From sequence record MK962754.1: 64,000 bases of DNA; one strand, 5' to 3'. How positions within the stretch are numbered: position 1 is the first letter of the stretch; every line of letters begins with the position of its first letter. A model generated the notes under the pieces. It was not told the DNA's origin. It ran no database searches and was given only the letters and a program-made list of their open reading frames with translations. Position numbers and translations under genes: made by a program. This DNA is from Shigella phage JK36. Positions 49,130-49,990 of the stretch are shown one piece after another.

Positions 49130-49990
49130 TTATACCGCCATTTTAGCTTTGATAGCTGGATGAGATTCGTAATTTTTAAGAACGAAATCAGAATGTGTCA
49201 TCGTTCCAGTAACCCAGTCCATTTGGATTTTTGTAGGCCAATTCTCAAAATTACTAGGCCAATTAATTTCAAGAGAACATAATTCTTTAGGTTCACGACG
49301 AAGAACTTCTTTGCATTGTTCTACATGATTGCTGTAGATATGCGTGTTGCCGCCTGAGAACACTAAATCACCTGGGATAAGGTTACACATCTTCGCTACA
49401 ATATGCGTCAAGGCAGCGTACGAGGCAATGTTGAACGGCAGGCCCAAGAAAACATCTACACTGCGTTGATACCATTGTAAATCAAGATGACCATTACGCA
49501 CATTGAACTGATAGAACATATGACAAGGAGGAAGAGCCATTTGGTCAATTTCGGCTGGGTTCCATGCAGAAACTATTTGACGACGATCATTAGGAAGAGC
49601 TTTAATACGGTCGATAGTTTTGACAAATTGGTCTACACCACCAAAATCACGCCATTGCTTACCATAAATAGGACCAAGTTCGCCGCTATGATATCCAAGG
49701 TCTTTTGCCTGATTTTCATAGTTGTCGTCCCAAATAGTTTTACCTTCAATTAGACTACCATGAGTACGAATACGCAAATCATTAACATTGGTAGAACCAG
49801 ACATGAACCACAGTAACTCGGCAATACAAGCTTTCCATGCTAATTTCTTAGTTGTTACTGCAGGGAATCCTTTAGTCAGATCCCAACGTAATTTAGTTCC
49901 GAACAGGGCAATAGTGCCTGTACCTGTACGGTCGTCTGTTTCGTAGCCATTTTCTAGGATATCATTAATCAGGTATTGGTATTGTTTCAT
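49130..49990 (-). CDS. td: thymidylate synthase (uninterrupted, no intron)
   Basis: Continuous 286-aa ORF, same length as spliced T4 Td, with active-site [11 protein letters not shown]. Confidence 0.92.

Follow-up and report, generated by a model that had tools for sequence, protein, structure and literature searches.

An intron-less thymidylate synthase gene with a vacant, probably usable I-TevI-type homing site in an RB69-like Shigella phage

We analysed a 64,000-nucleotide stretch of Shigella phage JK36 (MK962754.1), hereafter the window, which carries the thymidylate synthase gene td on its minus strand (49130..49990). In all likelihood this is an ordinary intron-less td, in which the site targeted by I-TevI, the endonuclease encoded in the td intron of phage T4, stands vacant and is probably usable. 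A first-pass annotation of this DNA had proposed that silent changes around the site may affect its susceptibility to homing. Our comparisons argue against that proposal, since the same bases flank resident introns in nine of ten intron-plus alleles of the genus Mosigvirus, a relative (G2285) carries the trace of a T4-type homing event, and the CAACG cleavage motif is intact.

The td gene is a single uninterrupted ORF of 286 codons with an ATG start. It aligns without gaps to the spliced td of T4, so the earlier reading of td as a continuous, intron-less 286-aa frame is confirmed. The Pfam profile PF00303 (Thymidylat_synt) covers the product over its full length and scores 323.9 bits (cut-off 24.3; residues 2-286; profile positions 1-266 of 266). 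The translation contains the ThyA motifs PPCH and YQRS.D, and the same residues are found in the T4 protein; we take the Cys of the former to be catalytic and the Arg of the latter to contact the dUMP phosphate, the established roles of these residues in ThyA-type enzymes. The high identity of the gene to those of the phages APCEc01 and RB69, described below, agrees with this assignment.

The neighbourhood of td follows that of T4, with the genes in the order frd, td, nrdA.2, nrdA and nrdB. The dihydrofolate reductase gene frd (49987..50574, minus strand; Pfam DHFR_1, 76.2 bits) ends in a TGA stop that overlaps the ATG of td as ATGA, an arrangement identical to that of T4. From this sequence td is predicted to be co-transcribed and translationally coupled with frd, and its product to be made straight from the unspliced message. 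Directly downstream of td lies a small nrdA.2-like ORF (DUF5496; 48874..49128, minus strand; PF17600, 49.3 bits), whose naming is supported by the nrdA.2 annotation of RB69. It is followed by nrdA, the gene of the ribonucleotide reductase large subunit (46531..48786, minus strand), which we identified from the ORF list and the annotation of APCEc01. The 87-nt spacer between nrdA and nrdA.2 (48787..48873) contains no endonuclease gene; phage a20, by contrast, has there a free-standing endonuclease-like ORF of 211 aa, with a weak match of 25 bits to the I-TevI DNA-binding domain. In the interval 45298..46531, the nrdB gene is likewise one unbroken ORF, with a gap of about 42 nt to nrdA, and both the nrdB intron and the mobE-type gene of T4 are missing from the window.

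Over 25 kb (window 30000..54999) the DNA is 99.4% identical to phage APCEc01 (species Mosigvirus mar005p1), and we accordingly regard the window, on sequence grounds, as part of an RB69-like T-even-type coliphage of the genus Mosigvirus. The td of APCEc01 (KR422352) shows 100% nucleotide identity to the window td, with no difference anywhere in the gene, and that of RB69 (AY303349) shows 97.6%. Both phages share with the window the uninterrupted 861-nt td, the gene order frd-td-nrdA.2-nrdA and the ATGA in which frd and td overlap. From -30 to +30 around the intron insertion point the window is the same as APCEc01, JK42 and mar009P5 and one base off RB69, and all seven intron-less Mosigvirus alleles that we sampled match it exactly or nearly over this interval. 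RB69 is listed with zero homing endonuclease genes in Table 5 of a published survey (PMC2993671). An intron-less td in RB69-type phages has been published already, and the window gene equals one in a deposited genome.

In T4 (NC_000866), exon 1 of td ends ...CAACGCTCAGTAGATGTTTTCTTGGGT and exon 2 begins CTACCGTTTAATATTGCGTCATATGCTACG / CTACCGTTTAATATTGCGTCATATGCT..., and between them lies a group IA intron of about 1017 nt that carries the I-TevI gene; the junction given in the first-pass annotation was exactly correct. The window td has no such intron, and it shares with T4 the length of the spliced product, the neighbouring genes, the CAACG motif and the insertion codons Gly183 and Leu184. 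Across the gene, 229 of 287 positions (286 residues and the stop codon) are identical between the two, and nucleotide identity is 73.6%. The coding-strand stretch of interest, CAACGCAGTGTAGATGTTTTCTTGGGCCTGCCGTTCAACATTGCCTCGTACGCTGCC, occupies 49412..49468, within the interval noted earlier (49405..49470). Here codons 175-192 encode the same protein as in T4, and eight of them are silently changed, by ten nucleotides in all (T4>window: TCA>AGT, GGT>GGC, CTA>CTG, TTT>TTC, AAT>AAC, GCG>GCC, TCA>TCG and TAT>TAC); codon 193 is Ala in the window and Thr in T4. The claim that the protein is conserved while at least eight wobble positions differ therefore holds, and the alignment to the T4 exons, which the annotation had suggested as a check, shows the T4 sequence not to be identical and the differences to be genuine.

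The empty insertion point falls between codons 183 (GGC) and 184 (CTG), at 49441..49442 on the minus strand. Its position was fixed from the intron junctions of T4, TuIa, a20 and BEU50 and of seven more Mosigvirus phages. Around it we predict a vacant I-TevI-type homing site from -27 to +11 (49431..49468, minus strand), which reads CAACGCAGTGTAGATGTTTTCTTGGGC up to the insertion point and CTGCCGTTCAA beyond it. The cleavage motif CAACG (CNNNG in general form) lies at 49464..49468, likewise on the minus strand, and is made up of the Gln175 codon plus bases 1 and 2 of the Arg176 codon.

We assessed whether the silent changes are concentrated at this site, given the further claim of the first-pass annotation that they cluster on the I-TevI binding side. 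This claim fails on the counts. Against T4, 102 of the 216 conserved degenerate codons of the whole gene (47%) are silently changed, as opposed to 8 of 18 conserved codons (44%) in the homing-site stretch. On the exon-2 side the figure is six of nine (binomial P = 0.20), and in sliding windows of nine such codons 46 of 208 reach at least six silent changes. P values for an enrichment at the site range from 0.20 to 0.68, and at about 81% the stretch is slightly more identical to T4 in nucleotides than the gene as a whole. Clustering was ruled out by the binomial and sliding-window counts, and the silent differences appear to be the ordinary divergence, of about 47% of synonymous codons, that separates the td genes of Mosigvirus and Tequatrovirus everywhere.

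Previous work allows the state of the site to be judged against the requirements of the enzyme. I-TevI is monomeric on its 38-bp site, where its DNA-binding domain wraps the minor groove over 20 bp that have the insertion point at their centre (PMC2988022). The cuts made by its nuclease domain fall within CA^AC^G, 23 and 25 nt upstream (PMC2988022, PMC5009752, PMC4065259). Within CNNNG only C1 and G5 are critical, and substitutions elsewhere are widely tolerated (PMC5009752, PMC4065259). In the window CAACG is unchanged and lies at the T4 distance (-27..-23), so that the critical C-27 and G-23 are intact. Wobble drift cannot alter either of them, because the C opens a Gln codon and the G stands in the middle of an Arg codon. 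Overall, the window site is identical to that of T4 at 32 of 38 positions and differs at six; in the central block (-10..+10) 17 of 20 are identical. Both the placement of CNNNG and the binding block of about 20 bp are as a homing site demands, and we infer that the window sequence would be cleaved efficiently.

Consistent with this, the T4 intron contains an operator of its own which shares 15 of 20 positions with the homing site and is bound by I-TevI with equal affinity (PMC2988022), and five mismatches in 20 are thus tolerated. For the nuclease-linker portion of the enzyme, most natural phage td sites with 53-87% identity in motif and spacer were cut like the T4 site, with RB32 as the exception (PMC4065259). 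This poorly cut substrate has CAAAG and 12 of 20 motif and spacer positions in common with T4, whereas the window has 17 of 20 (85%). RB69 is not named in the supplements of that study that list natural td substrates (PMC4065259).

A search of the window itself gave no sign of an intron or of its endonuclease. With the T4 and a20 introns as queries, blastn found no match anywhere in the window, and tblastn of I-TevI and its a20 homologue against the whole window returned only noise (E = 0.047-0.99) inside the distal tail-fibre ORF. Extending the tblastn queries to T4 MobE, SegG, I-TevI and two a20 endonucleases revealed no homing endonuclease genes in the window. At the Rfam gathering threshold (50 bits) the window has zero group I intron matches, a threshold that also misses the td introns of T4, a20 and G2285. 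The ORF inserted into the T4 td intron lowers its score to 40.3 bits, so that phage group I introns with an ORF inside them can escape a scan at this threshold. An Rfam scan by E-value, which did recover the T4 intron as a control at 40.3 bits, found no Intron_gpI in 44000..52000. The first-pass annotation had allowed that closer inspection might reveal a hidden intron; none emerged from blastn, tblastn or the E-value scan.

On the other hand, introns are present in td of many close relatives. Using as queries first a chimera that joins window exon 1 to the T4 intron, and then the frd-td-nrdA.2 segment of a20, we obtained 21 phage records with Mosigvirus-type frd-td-nrdA.2 flanks around an interrupted td. 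By identity bands, this is about one in five of the Mosigvirus-type records, intron-less alleles accounting for some 76 of about 97. All ten intron-plus records that we examined (a20, BEU50 and eight more) are classified as Mosigvirus, and one of them, G2469, belongs to the same species as APCEc01. In nine of the ten the intron measures 1016-1017 nt and is about 90% identical to that of T4 and 99.8% to that of TuIa. The phages a20, BEU50, NRG-P0074, JM10, G2469, AV109 and SQ17 have the td intron and an intact 245-aa I-TevI homologue at the exact T4 position. The endonuclease ORF has 245 codons in all nine readable Mosigvirus residents, LF82-4, with an annotated 738-nt CDS, being left out of the scoring. 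With 89% protein identity to I-TevI, the a20 enzyme shares its GIY-YIG, zinc-finger and DNA-binding domains.

The exon flanks of these introns bear directly on the window site. All variant bases of the window (AGT at -22..-20, TTC, AAC, GCC, TCG, TAC and GCC) are present in the flanks of the same nine of ten alleles, which differ from the window within 30 nt on either side essentially at -4 (A, not G), -1 (T, not C) and sometimes +3 (A, not G). Three of them, SQ17, G2469 and AV109, have one further private substitution each within this range. Over the complete exons, 19 of 861 nt separate a20 from the window, the nearest differences besides -4, -1 and +3 lying at -82 and +159. The same configuration appears in an older sequence, TuIa (AY262157, deposited 2003-2004), whose exons are of Mosigvirus type and differ from the window at 13 of the 501 nt sequenced. 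It reportedly comes from a set of T-even-like td sequences by Sandegren and Sjoberg (2004). In the TuIa and a20 (OQ067374) type, the insertion point and the flanking bases equal those of the window at all variant positions noted earlier; the difference lies in the intron of 1016 nt, 90% identical to that of T4, which the window lacks, and in the junction, which is TTA GGT followed by CTA or CTG there and TTG GGC followed by CTG in the window.

Even among phages with as many as about 100 td exon differences in 801 nt, these introns remain 99.6-100% identical, and the intron-plus NRG-P0074 and the intron-less JK42 are only 5 of 801 exon nucleotides apart. A near-invariant intron on such diverse exons means that its presence is scattered and not clonal. 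This pattern points to repeated horizontal spread of the td intron, as expected from repeated homing into window-type sites. Beyond the homing site the exons vary in patches as well: a second T4-like patch in exon 1 (td -159..-103) is common to JM17, AV109 and G2285, and exon 2 of SQ17 and LF82-4 is strongly divergent from +160 to +252 and partly T4-like. The td gene is therefore mosaic within Mosigvirus.

The remaining allele is that of G2285. Its td intron is 99.7% identical to that of T4, and of the informative exon sites from -64 to +36, 21 are T4-like, two are like neither and none is window-like; beyond -88 and +48 the exons are Mosigvirus-like again. The resulting tract of about 100-135 nt reaches further into exon 1 than into exon 2, in keeping with published work on I-TevI, an enzyme that remains bound to exon 2 (PMC2988022). 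The G2285 allele has every appearance of a textbook co-conversion tract, left by a natural homing event across genera. The recipient site was very probably window-like, because the seven sampled intron-less alleles are near-identical over -30..+30. Judged by these alleles together, td introns seem both to move within Mosigvirus and to have entered it from a T4-type donor.

If the window phage were to meet an intron-plus relative in the same cell, its site would most likely be cut. Repair from the donor would then bring in the intron together with a short tract of donor exon, and this tract would include the T required at -1 by the intron's 5' splice site. The exon flanks beside a resident intron are those of the donor after co-conversion, and they are for this reason no strict proof that the original site of the recipient was cut. 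For transfer from T4, the main barriers would be the low homology of the flanks (74%) and the reported partial mutual exclusion between RB69 and T-even phages.

We weighed two alternatives to this reading. The first, that the silent changes give partial resistance by weakening the binding or positioning of I-TevI and so keep the gene intron-free on co-infection, we consider unlikely. The candidate bases would be the AGT triplet at -22..-20, a C at each of -1, +9 and +12, and the G at +3. In favour of this idea, the activity of nuclease-linker fusions dropped when spacer position 2 or 3 was substituted singly: in Tev-mTALEN, changes at position 2 fell below wild type and C3T came near background (PMC4065259). 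The change from CTCA to CAGT right after CAACG in the window is a three-base change at spacer positions 2-4 and touches positions that proved sensitive in these fusions. The excess of intron-less alleles, about four in five of the Mosigvirus alleles sampled, would also fit inefficient homing. Against this stand the unchanged C-27 and G-23, the tolerance of I-TevI for operator mismatches, the lack of any excess of silent changes at the site and the T4-type intron with its co-conversion tract in G2285. Moreover, the AGT triplet and the bases +9C, +12C, +18C, +21G and +24C all adjoin resident introns in nine Mosigvirus genomes.

The base at -1 requires separate consideration, as C occurs there only in intron-less alleles, which would favour partial resistance. 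T is found at -1 in all 11 intron-plus alleles, while intron-less alleles have either C (window, APCEc01, RB69, JK42 and mar009P5) or T (SSE1, HY126 and LNA2). In group I introns the last exon base forms a U.G pair in P1 at the 5' splice site, and this pair, not recognition by the endonuclease, explains the T. P1 folds as expected in constructs of both the T4 and the a20 type. Since cleavage takes place 23-25 nt upstream, positions -23..-1 are replaced from the donor during repair, and a C at -1 would consequently not block acquisition of the intron. We also considered whether exon position -4 and the guide sequence of the intron covary in a compensatory manner, and dropped the idea, as both intron types pair with G or A at -4 (G.U or A-U) and P1 folds in all combinations.

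A narrower form of the argument, in which the junction-proximal silent variants (C at -1, G at +3 and AGT at -22..-20) measurably slow cleavage by enzymes of the I-TevI family, also has little probability in our judgement. If it were true, the ratio of about 4:1 between intron-less and intron-plus alleles would reflect a balance of homing against partial resistance of the target site, rather than limited opportunity.

The second alternative, a precise loss of the td intron from an ancestor that once had it, perhaps through recombination with an intron-less relative or a spliced copy, is very improbable. In its favour, alleles with and without the intron intermingle when ordered by exon distance, and the intron-less SSE1, HY126 and LNA2 resemble intron-plus alleles in their T at -1. 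Yet the window combination at -4, -1 and +3 (G, C and G) occurs in none of the 11 intron-plus alleles and hence carries no footprint of occupancy, the blastn and tblastn searches found no remnants of intron or endonuclease, and the intron-less state is that of the majority and of the older isolate RB69.

For the ordinary intron-less gene with its vacant site, the meaning is modest: the window td is of little importance alone, and the by-product of its analysis is a natural record of td intron mobility in public genomes. As a realistic empty site, the window allele is a convenient substrate for measuring how much drift of the target I-TevI-family enzymes tolerate.

Two further observations concern relatives of the window phage outside td. 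In APCEc01 a DAHP synthase gene of about 1.1 kb (330 aa; PF00793, 252 bits) adjoins the dCMP deaminase gene; the window is without it, and at the corresponding junction (window ~39839..39857) the alignment blocks to APCEc01 overlap by 19 nt. In Shigella phage JK45 (MK962757), positions 47239..47280 match the core of the T4 td intron (intron positions 43-84) perfectly over 42 nt. This 42-mer does not occur in the window even with up to three mismatches allowed; in JK45, the match hints at another group I intron.
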